Counted from the stretch's first letter, positions 4,972 to 61,344 are shown. The stretch is 64,000 nt of DNA from Patescibacteria group bacterium (GCA_038064195.1 JBBTTO010000003.1:178428-242427); one strand, 5' to 3'. Made by a program: numbers and translations. The notes: generated by a model not told the origin, from the letters alone.

Positions 4972-5430
4972 TTATGGAGTTTTCTTTTTTCGAAGGAGAA
5001 CTAAAGAGAGGATAAAGACAGTCAGCATATTGATCTGACAAAGGACACAGACAGGACAGATGACATGGAGCTGAAAGAGTTCACGATAGGCGATGTAGAG
5101 ACAAAAGATGAGGCCGAAAGTGGCCATGCCCAGAAGTAATTTTGTCTTTTTGTATGTCGCGGCCAGAAAGATCACGATATAGCCGATGAGGCCGTAAATG
5201 GGTGTGGGAACACCTAATGTTTTGGCGACTTCGCCTTTAATGATGGCGTCGCAGTTGACCAGACTATTGATGGAGCACAAAGTACGAGTAGGTTGCTCCC
5301 ACTGTTCGTAGAGCAGGTAGAGGGCAAGGATTATACCGACGATCGCAAGTGCGCGGATGGTAAAGAAGATTTTGTCGACCATAGAATAATTATCAGGAGT
5401 TGGAGGAGAGCCGGCAGTGATTTGGATCAC
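4972..5430 (-). CDS. Vitamin K epoxide reductase (VKOR) family membrane protein
   Basis: Polytopic membrane protein with CSINSLVNC and a CPVC redox pair, as in VKOR. The true start may be the internal MVDK at about 5382. Confidence 0.65.
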   Translation of the reverse strand: MIQITAGSPPTPDNYSMVDKIFFTIRALAIVGIILALYLLYEQWEQPTRTLCSINSLVNCDAIIKGEVAKTLGVPTPIYGLIGYIVIFLAATYKKTKLLLGMATFGLIFCLYIAYRELFQLHVICPVCVLCQINMLTVFILSLVLLRKKKTP

Positions 5431-8042: not shown

Positions 8043-9005
8043 GTGCACCACGACAAAGATTCGCGGCTGACTTCCAAACGCGTCATCCTCACATCATTCT
8101 CCATAGACATTCTCGATCTTGTGTCAAGTATCGTCGTGGCTTGGCTTTCAGGCAGTATTGTTATGTTCACCCAAGCCCTGGAGGGGTTTACTGACCTCGT
8201 CTCAAGTGGTTTACTCGTCTTTGGGTTGAAGAGATCACTGCGTAAAGCGGATAAAGATCATCCTTTCGGCTACGGACGGGAGATTTATTTCTGGACGCTT
8301 ATTTCAGCCCTTGTTATGCTCGGGAGCACGGCTGTATTGTCTCTTTACTTTGGCTATCAGCGCTTTATCCACCCGTATCATCTGTCAGATGTACCATATG
8401 CTCTCATAGTCTTAGTTGTAACTATTTTTACTAACGGTTACGGTTTTACTTTAAGCTATCGGCGTTTACTCAAGGGGAGATCGTTGCGTAATATAGCTAG
8501 GGTTTTTTATCGTTCGTCTCTTATTGAAATCAAGACAACTTTTATCCTGGATTTGATGGGGACTTGTGCCTCAGTTTTGGGTATTATCGCGATCGGTCTC
8601 TACGCGTTAACAGGAGATTCCCGGTATGACGGATTGGGAGCTATGACTATCGGTCTGGTACTGATCTTTTTTGGCTTTTTCCTGATTGCCGGGATACGGG
8701 ATCTCTTGGTCGGACGCAGTGCTGCTCCCCATGTTGAGCAAAAGATCAGAGAAGCTGCTCTTAATGTCCCTGAGGTTGAGGATGTGCTCGGGATTAAGAC
8801 TGTCCATGTAGGGTCTGAAAAATTACTGGTGGCACTTGATGTGCATATGCATAGTGATTTAAAGACGCGCGAACTTGAGATGTTGATGGATGAGATAAAG
8901 GCAGAAGTCCGTAAAGTTGTACCGAGTGTCAAATATATTCAGGTGGAGTTGGAGACGAGGGATAGAAAAGAGATTAGAGGTAAGGCTAAGTGGCACAGTG
9001 GGTAG
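8043..9005 (+). CDS. Cation diffusion facilitator (CDF) family metal efflux transporter
   Basis: 6 TM helices plus a C-terminal cytoplasmic domain. Resembles CzcD/ZitB-like transporters. Confidence 0.8.
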   Translation: MHHDKDSRLTSKRVILTSFSIDILDLVSSIVVAWLSGSIVMFTQALEGFTDLVSSGLLVFGLKRSLRKADKDHPFGYGREIYFWTLISALVMLGSTAVLSLYFGYQRFIHPYHLSDVPYALIVLVVTIFTNGYGFTLSYRRLLKGRSLRNIARVFYRSSLIEIKTTFILDLMGTCASVLGIIAIGLYALTGDSRYDGLGAMTIGLVLIFFGFFLIAGIRDLLVGRSAAPHVEQKIREAALNVPEVEDVLGIKTVHVGSEKLLVALDVHMHSDLKTRELEMLMDEIKAEVRKVVPSVKYIQVELETRDRKEIRGKAKWHSG

Positions 9006-32479: not shown

Positions 32480-33127
32480 ATGGATCAAACCGTTCAGATC
32501 AAAGTTGATGGCTTTTTCCGCAAATACAAAAAGCATAGCTATAAAAAAGGTGAAATGCTTATCCGTGCTGATGATGAGCCGCAGGGGACGATGTATCTGA
32601 CCAGGGGACGGGTAAAAGCATATTCCATCTCCCGCAAGGGTGAGGAAGTAATCGTCAATATTTTTAAGGAAGGTTCATTTTTCCCGATGTCATGGGCCGT
32701 CACTGACAGCCCCAATACGTATTTTTATGAGGCGTTGACAGAAGTTGAGTTATGGCGTGCTCCCAAAAATGACGTTGTTGTTTTCCTCCGAACTGAGCCG
32801 GATGTGCTTTTTGATCTTCTCAGGCGGGTTTTTATCGGTGTAGACGGCATCTTGCAGCGGATGAGTTATCTCATGGGTGAGGATGCGTATACACGTTTGA
32901 TCGCTGAACTTGTGATAACTGCCAAAAGATTCGGAGAAAAGACAGAAGAGGGAGCGGTAGAGTTAAAAATTTCAGAAAAAGATTTAGCCGCTCAGACAGG
33001 TCTTACGCGTGAGACGGTGAGTCGGGAGATAAAAAAGCTCAAGGATAAAAATCTGATAACTTTGCGTCGGGATGTGGTCCTGATACAAAGTCTTTCATAC
33101 CTTGAAAATGAGCTGGTGGAGGATTAA
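32480..33127 (+). CDS. Crp/Fnr-family transcriptional regulator
   Basis: cNMP-binding beta-barrel plus a C-terminal HTH (EKDLAAQTGLTRETVSREIKKL). Confidence 0.75.
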   Translation: MDQTVQIKVDGFFRKYKKHSYKKGEMLIRADDEPQGTMYLTRGRVKAYSISRKGEEVIVNIFKEGSFFPMSWAVTDSPNTYFYEALTEVELWRAPKNDVVVFLRTEPDVLFDLLRRVFIGVDGILQRMSYLMGEDAYTRLIAELVITAKRFGEKTEEGAVELKISEKDLAAQTGLTRETVSREIKKLKDKNLITLRRDVVLIQSLSYLENELVED

Positions 33128-54813: not shown

Positions 54814-55065
54814 AATTGTTCAGGGGATTGTATACTAATAAGATCCTATAGTCAACTCCGACTTGCGTTTCGTCTAAAGCTTCGGCCAGCCTCGCCGTCC
54901 ACCTCGGATCAACCGAGTCGAGACGGGAGTCTAGGCGGGCAAGGCGAGTTGAATCGAAGTCAAAGATACTTTTTAGGGCTCAATATCAGGGTGTGATAGA
55001 AATCACATACGGGAATTTATCTTAAGCATAAGATATCCATTATGGGAGGATTGGGGATTGAAGGT

Positions 55066-55326
55066 ATGACTCACCAGCAAAGAGTCGCTCACAGAATAAA
55101 AATTGCCAAGGGGCATCTGGAAACTGTTCTTAAAATGGTTGAGGGGGAGAGATATTGTATTGATGTTATTAACCAGTCGAGAGCAGTGCAAAATGCTTTA
55201 AAAGAGATTGATTATCTTCTTTTAGAAAACCATCTTCAAACCTGCGTGGTAGATCTTGTTCATAAAGGGAAAGCAAAACAGTCAGTTGAGGAAATAATGA
55301 GACTTTTCAAAAGTAACGATAAATAA
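55066..55326 (+). CDS. csoR: CsoR/RcnR-family metal-sensing transcriptional repressor (copper-sensing CsoR-like)
   Basis: HLETVLKMVEGERYCIDVINQSRAVQNALKEIDYLLLENHLQTCV has the conserved Cys and His/Cys ligands in CsoR-like positions. Confidence 0.75.
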   Translation: MTHQQRVAHRIKIAKGHLETVLKMVEGERYCIDVINQSRAVQNALKEIDYLLLENHLQTCVVDLVHKGKAKQSVEEIMRLFKSNDK

Positions 55327-55327
55327 T

Positions 55328-55864
55328 ATGGCAGATAAAAAATTCATTATCATAGTTGCAATAATCACCTTAGTTATCATGCTTGGTGGTATTGCTTTGG
55401 TTAATAGTTCTTCGTCAACTCCTCAAATTTTGAGCTCAGAAAACGCCCGCCTGCAATTGTCTTCGCAAAGCGATGGCGGGCAGGCAAAAGCGGAAACAGT
55501 AGAACCAACAAGCTATGATTGGGGAAACATTTCGTATAGTGGTACTAAGGCAACAAAGACATTTGCTATCAGGAATACGGGAAGTGATCCTCTCAAGCTC
55601 TTTAATGTTAAAACCTCTTGTCATTGTACGAAAGCGCATGTAACAATTGATGGGAAAGACAGCCCAGATTTTGGAATGAGTGGTATTTCCAGCTGGGCAG
55701 GAGAAGTCCCCGTCGGTAAAGAAGCAAAAGTAACTGTTATTTTTGATCAAGCATTTCATGGCCCACAAGGTATTGGTCCCATTACCCGTTTTGTTTCCAT
55801 AGAAACAAATGATAGAGGTACTCCGAAGATTACATTTACGCTTACAGGAACCGTTGTAAAATGA
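55328..55864 (+). CDS. DUF1573-domain secreted protein
   Basis: TM anchor. FAIRNTGSDPLKLFNVKTSCHCT is the DUF1573 (TSC-x-CT) signature. Confidence 0.65.
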   Translation: MADKKFIIIVAIITLVIMLGGIALVNSSSSTPQILSSENARLQLSSQSDGGQAKAETVEPTSYDWGNISYSGTKATKTFAIRNTGSDPLKLFNVKTSCHCTKAHVTIDGKDSPDFGMSGISSWAGEVPVGKEAKVTVIFDQAFHGPQGIGPITRFVSIETNDRGTPKITFTLTGTVVK

Positions 55865-56817
55865 AAAAAAATGATGAATATATCGAATTAAAAATACCTC
55901 AGATTATCTTCAGAACAATTCCGTTATGGCTAGTGATACTCCTTGTCATTAATTCATCAATGCTTGTTGGATTTACCGAGTACTATTTCATGAAAAAAAT
56001 TTTTAACGATACTGTTGTTGAACTTTCTAAAAAAACAAAATCATCTGAAGAATTGTTTCAGGTAGTAAAACAGCAAGTAATTCCACAAAAAGGATTCACT
56101 CTCGGCGTTGTATGGCATGATATCGGCAAGCAGTTACTCGACTCAGGGGTTATTGATCAACAAAAGTATGACGAACTTTTTGTTAATGACCCTCAAGAGG
56201 AAGAAGCGATGAAGTATTTGACCAGTTCTTCAAAAGACCACATGAAAATTGATGAAAGAAACTCGCGTTTTATGGTGAATACACTTTGGGCTATTGGTTT
56301 GGTGAATAAAAACAGACTTTTAGACGAGGGAGACATGAAAGTAGAAGGAGAGGGGAATCCTATGAAATTCAGCTCAACAGGCGGATGGAATTTAGGCGCA
56401 AAACCGACCAGAGAGCTGTATTCTTCGACTCCGCTTATTAGTCTTTCTTTTCAGCAAGCAGAGCTTGTTAAAAAGATTGCTCAAAATGTGTATCGTCCCT
56501 GCTGTAACAATCCGACATCATTTCCTGATTGTAATCACGGCATGGCAGCACTTGGTTATATTGAGCTCGCTGTCAGCCAGGGTCTTTCAGAAAGAGAAAT
56601 CTATAAAGACGTTCTTGCGCTCAATTCGTTTTGGTTTCCACAAACATATCTAGAGCAGGCAATATATTTCCAAAAGCAAGCTAAGGCATGGGGCAGTATC
56701 GATGCGAAAGTCGCCTTATCAAAAAAATACTCCTCAGCCCAGGGAGCACAAATAGTCAGTCAGTCCATACAAGACGTACCTGGTTTGCAAGCGCCCGGGG
56801 GAGGATGCGCAGCCTAA
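55861..56817 (+). CDS. Membrane-anchored hypothetical protein with a Cys/His cluster (YRPCCNNPTSFPDCNHGM)
   Basis: N-terminal TM helix. Candidate metal-binding site. Confidence 0.45.
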   Translation: MKKNDEYIELKIPQIIFRTIPLWLVILLVINSSMLVGFTEYYFMKKIFNDTVVELSKKTKSSEELFQVVKQQVIPQKGFTLGVVWHDIGKQLLDSGVIDQQKYDELFVNDPQEEEAMKYLTSSSKDHMKIDERNSRFMVNTLWAIGLVNKNRLLDEGDMKVEGEGNPMKFSSTGGWNLGAKPTRELYSSTPLISLSFQQAELVKKIAQNVYRPCCNNPTSFPDCNHGMAALGYIELAVSQGLSEREIYKDVLALNSFWFPQTYLEQAIYFQKQAKAWGSIDAKVALSKKYSSAQGAQIVSQSIQDVPGLQAPGGGCAA

Positions 56818-56818
56818 T

Positions 56819-57652
56819 ATGGAATCAATACTTTTACAAACATCACTTATTGCCGCTTTTGTCGCAGGTATCGTAGCATTGTTTGCCCCTTGTTGCATTT
56901 CATTTTTACTACCGGCGTACCTCGGTAACGTCTTTAAAGAGAAAGAAAAAGTAGTATTGATGACGCTCATTTTTGGTGCCGGTATTTTTGCGGTTATGAT
57001 GCCCGCCGTTCTGGGTGTTGCAGCGTTATCTAAGTTTTTATTTGAATATCATGACAGTATTTATTATCTTGGCGGGTTTGTCATGATACTTTCGGCAGTC
57101 ATAACTTTTTTAGGGCTGAAATTTCCAATGCCCCAATTACCAGGCGGTGATACACGAAAAACTGATCCTTTGTCTGTATTTACCCTCGGTATATTTTCAG
57201 GTATTACCAGCGCGTGTTGCGCGCCGGTTCTCATCGGTATATTGGCATTGACATTTTTATCTCCTAACTTTTTTGGGGCCTTAGCAATAGGTGGTATGTA
57301 TGTTTTGGGAATGGTCATGCCACTTTTATTTATTGCCGTATTTCTTTCGGGAAAGATGACAAAGTTCATGTTTTTGAGAAAGAAAGTATTCAGTTTTCAA
57401 TTTTTAGGTAAAGAACGTACGGTGATTGTTAGTAATTTAATTGCAAGTATCATTTTTTTCCTCACAGGTATTTTAATAATCTATCTTAAATCTATCGGCA
57501 GGCTTGGTATGGAAGACACAGAAGGATTTACGAAGATGATCACCAATGCGAGCGGTTATGTTAATCAATTTGCGGGAGGGAACATGTTGCTTAACCTGAT
57601 ATTTGTAGCAGCTCTTATTTTTGTTCTTTATAAGATTGCAAAAAAGGTATAA
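56819..57652 (+). CDS. DsbD/CcdA-like polytopic membrane protein with two intramembrane Cys-Cys dyads
   Basis: About 8 TM helices. FAPCCISFLLP and SACCAPVL sit at the positions of the CcdA redox cysteines but are doubled. Confidence 0.5.
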   Translation: MESILLQTSLIAAFVAGIVALFAPCCISFLLPAYLGNVFKEKEKVVLMTLIFGAGIFAVMMPAVLGVAALSKFLFEYHDSIYYLGGFVMILSAVITFLGLKFPMPQLPGGDTRKTDPLSVFTLGIFSGITSACCAPVLIGILALTFLSPNFFGALAIGGMYVLGMVMPLLFIAVFLSGKMTKFMFLRKKVFSFQFLGKERTVIVSNLIASIIFFLTGILIIYLKSIGRLGMEDTEGFTKMITNASGYVNQFAGGNMLLNLIFVAALIFVLYKIAKKV

Positions 57653-57686
57653 GCTGAATATATATAAGAGTAAAGAGGTGAGTAGT

Positions 57687-58325
57687 ATGAAAAGAGACCC
57701 GTTAGTATATGGAATAGTTAGTTTTCTTATCGGAGGTGTCATCGTGTGGTTCTTGGCAACGACAGCAGTGAACAATAACCAGTATGGCATGATGCAGATG
57801 ATGGGATTGCGCGGGGGATATCAGAGTATGATCGGTAGCTCAAGCACGATTGATGCTCACTTTATCGAGCAAATGATTCCTCATCACGAAGACGCAATAA
57901 CTATGGCAAAGCTGGCCCTTACAAAAGCAAAACGGACAGAAGTAAAAGAGTTAGCTCAAAATATTATTGACTCACAAGGGAAGGAAATAGACCGGATGAA
58001 AAGTTGGTATAAAGACTGGTATGGAAAAGAAGTACCTTCCGGGGTAAATGTGATGGGTAGACATGGGATGATGGGCAGTAATGGGATGCACATGGGAGTG
58101 ATGGGAGATGAAACTGATTTATCAAGGCTTGAACAAGCAAAGGATTTTGATCGAGCGTTTGTTGAAGAAATGATTCCGCATCATCAAATGGCCGTCATGA
58201 TGGCAAGTATGCTGAAAGATGGAACACAGCGTCCGGAAATGGAGAAACTTGCTAATGATATTATTACTGCCCAAACGAATGAAATAGACCAGATGAGGGG
58301 TTGGTTGCAAAATTGGGAGATATAA
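57687..58325 (+). CDS. DUF305-domain protein (two HH-containing repeats), membrane-anchored
   Basis: FIEQMIPHHEDAITMA and FVEEMIPHHQMAVMMA are the duplicated DUF305 motif. AAAGAGGTGA RBS. The ORF-track start at 57621 is too long. Confidence 0.7.
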   Translation: MKRDPLVYGIVSFLIGGVIVWFLATTAVNNNQYGMMQMMGLRGGYQSMIGSSSTIDAHFIEQMIPHHEDAITMAKLALTKAKRTEVKELAQNIIDSQGKEIDRMKSWYKDWYGKEVPSGVNVMGRHGMMGSNGMHMGVMGDETDLSRLEQAKDFDRAFVEEMIPHHQMAVMMASMLKDGTQRPEMEKLANDIITAQTNEIDQMRGWLQNWEI

Positions 58326-58329
58326 GGAG

Positions 58330-58602
58330 GTGAGGAATATGTTGAACGCAAAAGCATTTGCGAATGCAAGTACTCTTGTACTTCTCGCAGTATATGTAGT
58401 TTGTCGAGTCGTATCACTGGTAGCGCCTGACTTTCTTTTTAGTATTGCTAAAAGCTGGTTTCATACAATTAGTGTTGACAGCTTAAGGGGAATAAGTCCA
58501 ATGGATTTGGGGACATTTTTATTCGGAGGGATAGCCTTAGCTGTTTTAGTTTGGGTGACAACCTACGCGACAATTACTCTCTATAACCGTTGGGCAAAAT
58601 AA
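58330..58602 (+). CDS. Small membrane protein
   Basis: 90 aa, 2-3 TM helices. Last gene of the CsoR cluster. Confidence 0.4.
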   Translation: MRNMLNAKAFANASTLVLLAVYVVCRVVSLVAPDFLFSIAKSWFHTISVDSLRGISPMDLGTFLFGGIALAVLVWVTTYATITLYNRWAK

Positions 58603-59547: not shown

Positions 59548-60858
59548 ATGCCCGGAAAGAAAGCAAGAAAAACTAGTGTAAAAAGATCCCGTGCCACTCG
59601 TACTTCTCAGGTAAAAATTGTCGTTATATTTTTACTACTCCTTGGAATTGCTTTAATTGCCAGATCAGTAATGCTCCATGAGAACTACAAGGTACTTGGA
59701 GCTTCAACGCTTCTCGCCAGAGGCGGGGATGACTCCGGTAGTGGTGATGGTGGGGGAGGTAGTAACTCAGGAAGCGCCTCTTCGGGCAGTTCTGATTCTG
59801 GAAGCAGTGGTACCTCAGGCAGTACCGGTGGTAGCAATGGATCAGGGAATACCTCAGGCGGCTCCGGATCCGGTGGGAGTGATTCATCAGGATCCAGTAC
59901 TTCAAGTGGTGGATCAAGTAGCATCAGTGTCTCAGATAATACAAGGGTAATATGTACTGGACCTGATGGAAAGAAATTCGAAACAAAACGTAAAGATTGT
60001 GAAGAATTAAATAAAGCATGGAATAAACCTGTCAGCTTTACCGTGCTTCCTAATAAATCTAAATCACAACCTGTAAAAACAGAAACACGTACTCGATCTG
60101 TAGCACCATCTGTTAATCCTTCAATCAGTGAAACACCAGAAGTGGAAAATGAAGATGATGATTCAGGCGTCGAGACGAAAACAGAATCCAATGGAAACGA
60201 AGAAAGAACTGAAGTCAGGCTTTCTGAAACCGAAAGAATTCGAACAAGAATAAAAGACGGCAGAACCCGTATCGATATTACATCTGGTGGAATCAAAACA
60301 CGTTTGGAGGTCAGAGATGATCGGGTAGTCATAAAAGCTGAGCAGGAAGATGGTACAGAAGTTGAGTTAGAAGATGATGCCTTGTTAAAGATTGATGATA
60401 GGTTGGCAAAAAACAGTATCAAAATAGCAACAGCCGGAGCGGAGAAGTTCTTAGTCCAAAAAGGAGCTACAGCAGCTATCACAGATTTTCCTGTCTCAGT
60501 TGATCTTGCAACGAATACTGTCTTTGTGGATACGCCGAATGGAGAAAAATCCCTGACGGTACTTCCTGAACAGGCAATTCAAAACCTCATCGCAGCAAAT
60601 GTTGTGAATAGAATCGGAGGAGAAGCACTGGTTAACGAAGCAACAAATAATAATCTAACGTCTGTAAGCCAGTTAATTACTCTTGGTGAGAAAAACGGAA
60701 TACCTATCTATGAAATAACCGGAGTTTCAGATCAGAAACTACTTGGATTTATCCCAGTCGTAATTGAAAAAGAAGTTGTTGTTTCAGCTGAGACGGGGAA
60801 CGCTCTTTCTATCAATGAGTCCTTAGGTGCAAGAATTCTTGACGCAATTTCCTTCTAA
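59548..60858 (+). CDS. Secreted protein with a long Gly/Ser low-complexity linker
   Basis: TM anchor, an approx 90-aa G/S/D-rich stretch, then a structured C-terminal domain. Confidence 0.5.
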   Translation: MPGKKARKTSVKRSRATRTSQVKIVVIFLLLLGIALIARSVMLHENYKVLGASTLLARGGDDSGSGDGGGGSNSGSASSGSSDSGSSGTSGSTGGSNGSGNTSGGSGSGGSDSSGSSTSSGGSSSISVSDNTRVICTGPDGKKFETKRKDCEELNKAWNKPVSFTVLPNKSKSQPVKTETRTRSVAPSVNPSISETPEVENEDDDSGVETKTESNGNEERTEVRLSETERIRTRIKDGRTRIDITSGGIKTRLEVRDDRVVIKAEQEDGTEVELEDDALLKIDDRLAKNSIKIATAGAEKFLVQKGATAAITDFPVSVDLATNTVFVDTPNGEKSLTVLPEQAIQNLIAANVVNRIGGEALVNEATNNNLTSVSQLITLGEKNGIPIYEITGVSDQKLLGFIPVVIEKEVVVSAETGNALSINESLGARILDAISF

Positions 60859-60861
60859 TTT

Positions 60862-61344
60862 ATGAAAAAGGCTGAGGTAATGTTATCGCTGCTAAGAATT
60901 GCCATGGGAGTTCTTTTCACGTGGGCTTTTTTTGATAAAGTTTTCGGACTCGGATTTGCCACGACTTCTGCTAGGGCGTGGATTCATGGCGGATCTCCGA
61001 CTTCCGGATTTCTAAAATTTACTGATGGAACATTCTCACCCATCTTCCAGTTTCTTTCAGGAATTCAAATTATTGACTGGTTATTTATGCTGGGGTTGTT
61101 AGGGATTGGACTGGCGATGCTGTCAGGAATCGGATTACGTATCGCGGGATATGCGGGTGCTGTCTTTGGCGTTTTACTTTATTTGTCAGTCTTTCCACCC
61201 CAAAATAATCCGGTCATTGATGAACATCTTATTTATTCCTTAATTTTTCTCGTATTCTCAACAGGTGAGGTTGGACGTCGGTATAGTCTCTATTTATGGT
61301 GGAGTAAGCAGGCTTTGGTTAAAAAGTATTCATTTCTTCAATAA
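60862..61344 (+). CDS. DoxX-family membrane protein
   Basis: LRIAMGVLFTWAFFDKVFGLG and 4 TM helices. Confidence 0.5.
   Translation: MKKAEVMLSLLRIAMGVLFTWAFFDKVFGLGFATTSARAWIHGGSPTSGFLKFTDGTFSPIFQFLSGIQIIDWLFMLGLLGIGLAMLSGIGLRIAGYAGAVFGVLLYLSVFPPQNNPVIDEHLIYSLIFLVFSTGEVGRRYSLYLWWSKQALVKKYSFLQ

Follow-up and report, generated by a model that had tools for sequence, protein, structure and literature searches.

We analysed a 64,000-nucleotide (nt) stretch of a groundwater Patescibacteria genome (GCA_038064195.1, JBBTTO010000003.1:178428-242427; hereafter the window, in which all positions are counted) that carries a putative copper-handling locus of six open reading frames (ORFs), called g1 to g6 in order. 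All six lie on the + strand, from 55042 or 55066, depending on the start chosen for g1, to 58602, with near-zero intergenic space. Single-nt gaps separate g1 from g2 and g3 from g4, g2 and g3 overlap by 4 nt, and the spacings are 34 nt between g4 and g5 and 4-13 nt between g5 and g6. Scans with Pfam and NCBIfam assigned g1 to PF02583, g2 to DUF1573 together with an immunoglobulin (Ig)-like HYDIN/VesB domain, g5 to DUF305/CopM and g6 to DUF5676. A previous reading of the DNA by itself (the sequence-only reading) had described six tightly packed genes here, and we recovered both this packing and all of the motifs it had pointed out, namely TSCHCT in g2, PCCNNPTSFPDCNHGM in g3, FAPCC and SACCAP in g4, and the two copies of MIPHH in g5.

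Table 1. Features of the locus and of the rest of the window. aa, amino acids; TM, transmembrane.
Feature	Position	Strand	Characteristics
g1, predicted CsoR-family Cu(I)-sensing repressor	55066-55326	+	86 aa from MTHQQ; PF02583
g2, membrane-anchored Ig-like DUF1573 protein	55328-55864	+	S-C-x-C-T motif (TSCHCT)
g3, uncharacterised family	55861-56817	+	318 aa; N-terminal TM anchor
g4, CcdA/DsbD-superfamily membrane protein	56819-57652	+	277 aa; FAPCC in TM1, SACCAP in TM4
g5, membrane-anchored DUF305/CopM-family protein	57687-58325	+	two MIPHH motifs
g6, DUF5676 two-TM protein	58339-58602	+	conserved Cys in TM1, SW(F/M)H motif; alternative GTG start at 58330
Degenerate candidate CsoR operator, ATATCCATTATGGGAGGAT	55033-55051	+	overlaps putative −10 TAAGAT (55029-55034) and ATG 55042
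Perfect CRP-type palindrome, TGTGAtagaaaTCACA	54992-55007	+	upstream of operon; candidate activator site
VKOR-like ORF	4972-5430	-	phmmer 7e-8 to VKORs flanking the module in 9 loci
CDF-like ORF	8043-9005	+	HPFGYGRE motif, six hydrophobic segments, C-terminal domain; by-eye call
436-aa protein	59548-60858	+	N-terminal anchor, long Gly/Ser-rich low-complexity region, weak PepSY-like C-terminus (E = 0.019)
Weakly DoxX-like ORF	60862-61344	+	Pfam E = 0.016; 2.2 kb downstream of g6

Relatives of g3 are found in at least 589 GTDB species genomes, from which we fetched 80 species-level loci (related loci carry L-numbers and g3 homologues P-numbers) and counted the neighbours within 3.5 kb of g3 in a jackhmmer survey. 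Nearly all g3-bearing genomes belong to the Patescibacteria (Microgenomates, WWE3, Parcubacteria and Peribacteria). In a few records the taxon is given as Chloroflexi, Anaerolineales or Micrarchaeota, and the label 'uncultured Gammaproteobacteria' on several loci is probably a submission artefact. Judged by its homologues, the window itself comes from a Patescibacterium near Candidatus Levybacteria. The module recurs, in various forms, in all 80 examined loci, hence the arrangement is far beyond chance. DUF1573 (g2) accompanies g3 in 61 of the 80, the Cys-Cys (CC)-doubled CcdA homologue (g4) in 59, CsoR (g1) in 40, DUF5676 (g6) in 30 and DUF305 (g5) in three. The sequence-only reading had proposed neighbourhood conservation as a check; gene order is kept across the 80 loci, most frequently as g1-g2-g3-g4(-g6). 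A heavy-metal P1B ATPase is encoded within about 4 kb of g3 in 60 of the 80 loci, usually on the same strand and straight after g6. Of the ATPase ORFs, 49 reach 550 aa or more; CPC is present in 29 of these, MxxSS in 42 and an N-terminal CxxC in 46, a combination that in the P1B classification marks the Cu(I) P1B-1 type. With these pumps, and with canonical CsoR boxes before the module, the copper context proved stronger than had been claimed.

The product of g1 scores 78 bits against PF02583 (the DUF156/Trns_repr_metal fold; cutoff 22.8), and its top match in the PDB is the M. tuberculosis CsoR 2HH7 (6.6e-15), with Geobacillus 4M1P and Thermus 3AAI also found. Other branches of the family match more weakly (InrS 5e-8, CstR-type 7MQ1 5e-7, FrmR 3e-3), and the NCBIfam models give 52 bits for RicR against 24 for FrmR and 19 for RcnR. 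In the alignment with 2HH7 the pattern YC...H-x3-C falls on Tyr35/Cys36/His61/Cys65 (rYCidv on aYCvdv and nHlqtC on nHletC), so that the Cu(I)-ligand fingerprint x-C-H-C of M. tuberculosis CsoR (Cys36, His61 and Cys65) is present together with the second-shell Tyr35. By our own register count His3 lies off the 'W' position of RcnR/InrS, and it is not conserved among the orthologues. The family assignment made in the sequence-only reading is therefore borne out, and g1 does not fall into the non-copper RcnR/FrmR branch, as its copper ligands are kept and FrmR and RcnR score far lower; its sequence is that of the copper-type CsoR branch, with Cu(I) sensing predicted. Gene callers also start g1 at ATG 55042, which gives 94 aa. 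Since the CsoR box covers this ATG and MTHQQ is the called start of the orthologue in L087, the true start is probably 55066.

An operator upstream of g1, which the sequence-only reading had advised looking for, is canonical in the relatives and orthologous in position in the window, although the candidate copy in the window is degenerate. In about 35 of the 40 related loci with a CsoR gene, ATATCCCC-N3-5-GGGGGATAT occurs immediately upstream of that gene, and textbook boxes such as ATATCCCCTATGGGGGGATAT and TATACCCCATGGGGGTATA are often found between a TTGACA −35 and the −10. A half-site scan over 828 kb of loci returned 44 CsoR-box sites as against three in shuffled sequence; 20 of them precede g1, five precede g2 and five lie at the ATPase. 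The window box ATATCCATTATGGGAGGAT aligns column for column with ATATCCCCAATGGGAGGAT (L087), ATATCCCCCATGGGGGGAC (L088) and CTATCCCCATGGGGAGGAT (L004).

The CRP-type palindrome TGTGAtagaaaTCACA is the sole match to the CRP consensus in the 64 kb (0.07 expected). It stands upstream of CsoR at the same position, and with the same spacing to the CsoR box, in L010, L087, L088 and L089. Given the putative −10, it would be centred near −41.5, in class II geometry, which suggests that the operon is under dual control, with CsoR as repressor and a Crp-type protein as activator. The window encodes a Crp/Fnr-family regulator (32480-33127), and Crp-like genes flank the module in six of the 80 loci. An inverted repeat, TATCTTA/TAAGATA (55018-55035), overlaps the putative −10 hexamer, and L009 has a similar element.

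The sequence-only reading had taken g4 for a DsbD/CcdA-like protein in which CC stands at both redox Cys positions, and this description is upheld. A profile of 34 g4 homologues matches the Thermus CcdA 5VKV with E = 1.3e-7 over TM1-TM5; the two redox Cys of CcdA, in TM1 and TM4, are matched by the leading Cys of FAPCC and SACCAP, respectively. Some g4 orthologues are named CcdA by NCBI, and jackhmmer searches from g4 recruit canonical DsbD_TM proteins; no NCBIfam model matched g4. The rule of one redox Cys per repeat, which yields a single TM1-TM4 disulfide, is broken in g4, where each position is Cys-Cys. The CC/CC arrangement is invariant in all of the approximately 58 g4 orthologues of the loci, whereas canonical CcdA paralogues in these loci have single Cys.

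Some loci without g4 have another membrane protein beside g3. A canonical DsbD_TM protein (PF02683) adjoins g3 in L046, L070 and L079, and a small 'HCPLC' membrane protein does so in about ten loci (L038, L039, L047, L058, L061, L066-L068, L078 and L080). The latter protein, of about 156 aa with the motif at its N-terminus and no Pfam family, is encoded between DUF1573 and g3 (e.g. L061:3790-4260) and seems to serve as an alternative membrane partner that bears Cys. The constant theme is g3 plus a Cys-bearing membrane partner plus a copper pump.

The sequence of g3 has no match in Pfam, NCBIfam or the PDB. Its TM anchor is followed by some 230 aa of alpha-rich globular domain, which holds the motif R-P-C-C-x-N-x5-D-C-N-H-G-M (PCCNNPTSFPDCNHGM occupies residues 213-228), and by a flexible Gly-rich tail ending ...GGC-A-A. 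The family is large, with 3148 homologues in a 90%-clustered database and 490 representative clusters at 50% identity (E ≤ 1e-3). Residues that do not vary among 36 sequences with identities down to 29% are W143, G146, L195, R212, P213, C214, C215, N217, D223, C224, N225, H226, G227 and the tail Cys C316; nearly all of 149 representatives have the RPCCxN...DCNHGM motif and end in ...GGxC-x-x. An AF2 model (predicted local distance difference test, pLDDT, 82.9; predicted template modelling score, pTM, 0.78) is confident for the mainly helical domain and of low confidence in the Gly-rich tail, and a Foldseek search of this model against the PDB gave no match below E = 1.

Among the 149 representatives 31 have at least 420 aa, and 14 of these 31 carry GCPxCG within their first 260 residues; read by eye, P0253, P0264, P0276 and P0287 have an N-terminal multi-TM domain with GCPxCG in a hydrophobic segment. 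These four and P0326 (about 480-550 aa) are fusions of a multi-TM GCPxCG domain to g3. The same domain is also found as stand-alone ORFs (the 'AACCAHH' membrane family) in about ten loci, e.g. L082:7658-8203 and L023:5168-5602, with no Pfam match. Another homologue, P0247 (406 aa), has an extracytoplasmic N-terminal rhodanese (PF00581, 1.7e-11) ahead of the g3 domain, which hints at sulfur or thiol chemistry.

The g2 protein scores 50 bits against PF07610 (cutoff 26.1) and 34 bits against the Ig-like PF22544, and S-C-x-C-T is kept in 72 of 73 g2 orthologues. In selenoprotein members of DUF1573 the C-x-C motif is replaced by U-G-C (PMC9312934). The recurrent association of DUF1573 with copper that the sequence-only reading had asserted holds within these loci; we found no paper that links DUF1573 to copper function. 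g5 scores 164 bits against PF03713 and 123 bits against the NCBIfam CopM model NF049983 (cutoff 90), and occurs in the close relatives L087 and L089. DUF305 had been listed among the six genes of the locus; we find it to be accessory and not core, confined to the window sub-clade. g6 matches PF18926 with 58 bits (cutoff 27.6) over model positions 1-82 of 82, and its typical place is between g4 and the P1B ATPase. Our literature searches returned no paper on DUF5676, on CsoR in the Candidate Phyla Radiation (CPR) or on this module.

Further genes recur near g3: DsbA-like in 16 loci, SHOCT/Met-rich in 14, VKOR in nine, DoxX in eight, two-component pairs in eight and seven, DUF411/CopG-like with CGCC in six and BlaI/BlaR in five, along with redoxin and thioredoxin genes. 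BlaI/BlaR-type pairs (Penicillinase_R plus Peptidase_M56), DUF3105 and DUF302 stand beside g3 in CsoR-less loci (L033, L034, L088 and others), where the pairs may provide an alternative, CopY-like regulation.

From these data we propose, with about as much confidence as doubt, that g1 to g6 form a CsoR-repressed copper-stress operon which encodes a thiol-based Cu(I) handling module for the envelope of a wall-less-periplasm (Gram-positive-like) Patescibacterium. Two uncharacterised Cys-rich membrane proteins, g3 and g4, would probably guard the cell surface against copper. The Cu(I)-type CsoR, the conserved operator, the synteny and the linkage to CopA-type ATPases support the assignment as a copper-stress operon. 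Cytoplasmic Cu(I) would bind CsoR at Cys31/His56/Cys60 (numbering from 55066), upon which the repressor would leave its promoter-overlapping box and g1 to g6 would be transcribed. g4, with its CcdA fold, would move reducing equivalents outward from the cytoplasm, presumably from thioredoxin. The Ig-like g2, with its CxC, would take the role that the alpha domain, also Ig-like, has in DsbD/ScsB, and with g4 it would make up a 'split DsbD'. The client would be g3, of a new family and fold, whose CC...C-x-H-x-M site and swinging C-terminal Cys tail would be kept reduced; reduced g3 may then bind Cu(I) where it appears at the surface of the membrane, or reverse disulfides whose formation copper has catalysed. 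This Cu(I) might, for example, be metal pumped out by the Cu(I) P1B ATPase encoded beside the module in most relatives. CopM (g5) would add a Met/His copper sponge, CopM being a known copper-binding resistance protein (PMC4335983).

Several observations speak for this scheme. The homology of g4 to CcdA, with CC on the redox Cys, supports a role as an electron conduit, and the canonical single-Cys DsbD_TM proteins found in the place of g4 in some loci argue for a conduit of reducing equivalents no less than for metal relay; other Cys-motif membrane proteins in that place count in favour too. The alpha domains of DsbD and ScsB are thiol oxidoreductases of Ig fold (PMC10907172), and g2 is likewise Ig-like, with an invariant CxC. 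The Gly-rich, low-confidence tail of g3 with its invariant Cys, the GCPxCG membrane extension in 14 of the 149 representatives, and the recurrence of DsbA, VKOR, redoxin and thioredoxin genes nearby are further points in favour. From the N-terminal anchors and the positive-inside pattern in homologues such as P0247, the domains of g2, g3 and g5 are predicted to be outside. We infer the direction of electron or metal flow, the g4→g2→g3 pairing and the binding of Cu(I) by g2 and g3.

A number of results weigh against the proposed copper-stress operon and its electron conduit. The 64-kb window contains no P1B ATPase, and the operon encodes no thioredoxin-fold partner, unlike Scs/Dsb systems. By half-site score the window box ranks 42nd in the window and is not significant alone; statistical support for it thus failed, and the case rests on the orthologous alignment. 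g4 does not match the Pfam models PF02683 (DsbD_TM) and PF13386 (DsbD_2) even at E ≤ 10, and its AF2 model (pLDDT 56.7) is too poor for a fold search, hence its homology rests on the 5VKV profile match. The invariant CC doubling is not explained by a simple disulfide relay, and a tetrathiolate metal site would fit at least equally well. For g3, the putative binding of Cu(I) is drawn from motif chemistry, no structural analogue having been found.

The doubled cysteines had led the sequence-only reading to favour metal relay over thiol-disulfide exchange. In our version of this idea g4 would be a permease for Cu(I) or another thiophilic metal and not an electron carrier: the CC of TM1 and the CC of TM4 would form a transient tetrathiolate site moved across the membrane by the elevator motion of CcdA, and metal would pass to or from the CxC of g2 and, in g3, the CC...C-H-M site and the tail Cys, in the manner of Hg(II) transfer from MerP to MerT/MerF. 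We regard this, the main rival to the electron conduit, as possible, though doubtful. The CC/CC of every g4 orthologue, set against the single Cys of canonical CcdA paralogues in the same loci, argues for it, as do vicinal Cys pairs in TM helices, which are a hallmark of the Hg(II) transporters MerF, MerT and MerE (PMC5500634, PMC5715351). The DsbD family moreover belongs to the LysE superfamily, whose members are otherwise largely metal-ion exporters (CadD, NicO and MntP) (PMC4608589), and g4 is divergent enough to miss the Pfam DsbD_TM model. However, g4 accompanies a dedicated Cu(I) ATPase and does not replace it, a canonical electron-transfer CcdA/DsbD_TM protein stands in for g4 beside g3 in some loci, and the Mer transporters are resembled in motif only, with no homology. 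A permease that passes Cu(I) passively and is induced when copper is in excess would also leave its driving force or direction unexplained. Were metal carried nevertheless, g4 might, as we put forward tentatively, be the first DsbD/CcdA-fold protein turned from an electron carrier into a translocator of thiophilic metal (Cu(I)) by means of a membrane site of four thiols, and g3 a membrane-anchored Cu(I) chaperone of new fold whose C-terminal Cys arm swings; with DUF1573 they would make up an unrecognised CPR-wide pathway of copper trafficking that partners CopA.

It seems to us improbable that g2, g3, g4 and CopM serve copper acquisition or cuproprotein maturation, delivering Cu(I) to an extracytoplasmic copper enzyme instead of acting in defence. 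The DsbD-like gene that in B. subtilis presumably lies beside copper uptake genes would favour such a role. Cys/His/Met chaperones of the Sco, PCuAC and CueP type metallate enzymes, CueP metallating SodC (PMC10907172). A CsoR derepressed by Cu(I) and linked to an efflux-type CopA is nonetheless the signature of a response to excess, and there is no cuproenzyme gene near the locus in the scanned window ORFs (31-61 kb) or among the recurrent neighbours. Even less probable, to the point of being remote, is a persulfide (reactive-sulfur) or general thiol-stress module under a CstR-like sensor and not under copper control. Both CstR, which senses persulfide, and TTHA1953, a regulator of Sox in Thermus, do belong to the CsoR family (PMC10318464); the g3 homologue P0247 has an N-terminal rhodanese, and a rhodanese gene lies downstream in L089. 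Yet g1 retains the His of the C-H-C Cu(I) triad and scores best to authentic Cu-CsoRs, well ahead of the CstR-type 7MQ1; the operator is the canonical G/C-tract CsoR box; and the genes that predominate nearby are those for Cu(I) ATPases, CopM, DUF411 and SHOCT/Met-rich proteins. We thus hold both the maturation and the persulfide alternatives to be unlikely, in view of the C-H-C triad, the canonical operator and the CopA linkage.

Elsewhere in the window, two further genes named in the sequence-only reading as lying close to the locus did not hold up. A Pfam scan of 30 ORFs between 31 and 61 kb revealed neither a CDF transporter nor a cupredoxin; the sole CDF-like ORF that we found is 46 kb off and is probably the transporter that was meant. 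When DsbA, DUF411 and similar genes were sought in the window, only the VKOR-like ORF turned up. The ORF of the 436-aa protein is kept beside the locus only in a contig from Hainich groundwater, part of which is identical to the window. We also considered a GC-rich stretch of about 140 nt (54835-54975) in the divergent intergenic region upstream of the operon and dropped it as a feature: it shows no significant fold on either strand (z = -1.6 and -1.8) and no Rfam match, has no copies elsewhere in the window or the loci, and is absent from orthologous regions.

Patescibacteria have tiny genomes with few accessory functions, yet at least 589 species-level genomes keep a g3-type module, usually with a copper pump. 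This retention implies that copper and thiol damage to the envelope is a major selective pressure on these surface-attached episymbionts. The module also offers a testable context for DUF1573, DUF5676 and DUF305. If g4 carries metal, an electron-transfer fold would have been re-purposed for metal transport; if it carries electrons, the link between copper and disulfide homeostasis of the Scs type would extend to organisms without a periplasm.

Among known systems, the regulatory part resembles the cop operons under CsoR (M. tuberculosis cso, B. subtilis copZA, Geobacillus and Thermus CsoR), with which it shares a C-H-C CsoR, a G/C-tract pseudo-palindromic operator over the promoter and, in most relatives of the module, a CopA-type P1B ATPase in the gene string. 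It differs in that no CopZ-like cytoplasmic chaperone is seen, the ATPase is not adjacent in this window, and the cargo consists of four or five membrane-anchored or extracytoplasmic Cys/His/Met proteins; two of these, g3 and g4 (the CcdA homologue with CC pairs), are without a described counterpart.

The envelope part recalls the copper-induced Scs proteins (ScsB-ScsC-ScsD) and CueP of Salmonella, Proteus and Caulobacter. There the envelope thiols are maintained by a membrane reductase of the DsbD family that bears a Cys domain of Ig fold, and this reductase works together with the CopA/GolT exporters and with CueP, a Cu(I) chaperone that contains Cys (PMC10907172). In the present locus the Ig-like DUF1573 protein (CxC) and the TM protein g4 are separate, and the TM protein has CC/CC and not single Cys. 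In ScsB, by contrast, an Ig-like alpha and a thioredoxin-like gamma domain belong to one polypeptide, and ScsC and ScsD are of thioredoxin fold; this operon encodes no thioredoxin-fold protein. The putative client g3 is unrelated to CueP in sequence and has no fold match, and the regulator is CsoR, not CueR/CpxR. Hence, with thioredoxin-fold proteins lacking, we consider the module an analogue of Scs and not a member.

For g4 the nearest comparisons are Thermus thermophilus CcdA (5VKV) and DsbD-beta, with homology over TM1-TM5 and aligned Pro-Cys positions. g4 departs from them in its CC pairs, in an extra C-terminal region of about 90 aa, in scoring below the Pfam DsbD_TM/DsbD_2 thresholds and, in the case of CcdA, in a genomic context of copper and not of cytochrome c maturation. 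MerT, MerF and MerE likewise have vicinal Cys-Cys in TM helices, which there carry thiophilic metal (PMC5500634, PMC5715351), and extracytoplasmic partners with Cys motifs. They have 2-3 TM as compared with 6+ TM in the CcdA-like g4 and show no sequence homology to it, none of the six proteins matches a Mer family in Pfam or NCBIfam, and the context here is that of a copper-sensor regulator, with no MerR or MerA. g5 passes the NCBIfam CopM model and shares the duplicated His/Met helices of Synechocystis CopM (PMC4335983), from which it differs in having an N-terminal TM anchor, in being under CsoR and not CopRS, and in its restriction to a sub-clade. Collectively, the comparisons suggest that the regulatory logic of the CsoR cop operons and the Scs-like envelope logic are known elements, and that the g3 family and the CC-doubled g4, both widespread in CPR, are new.

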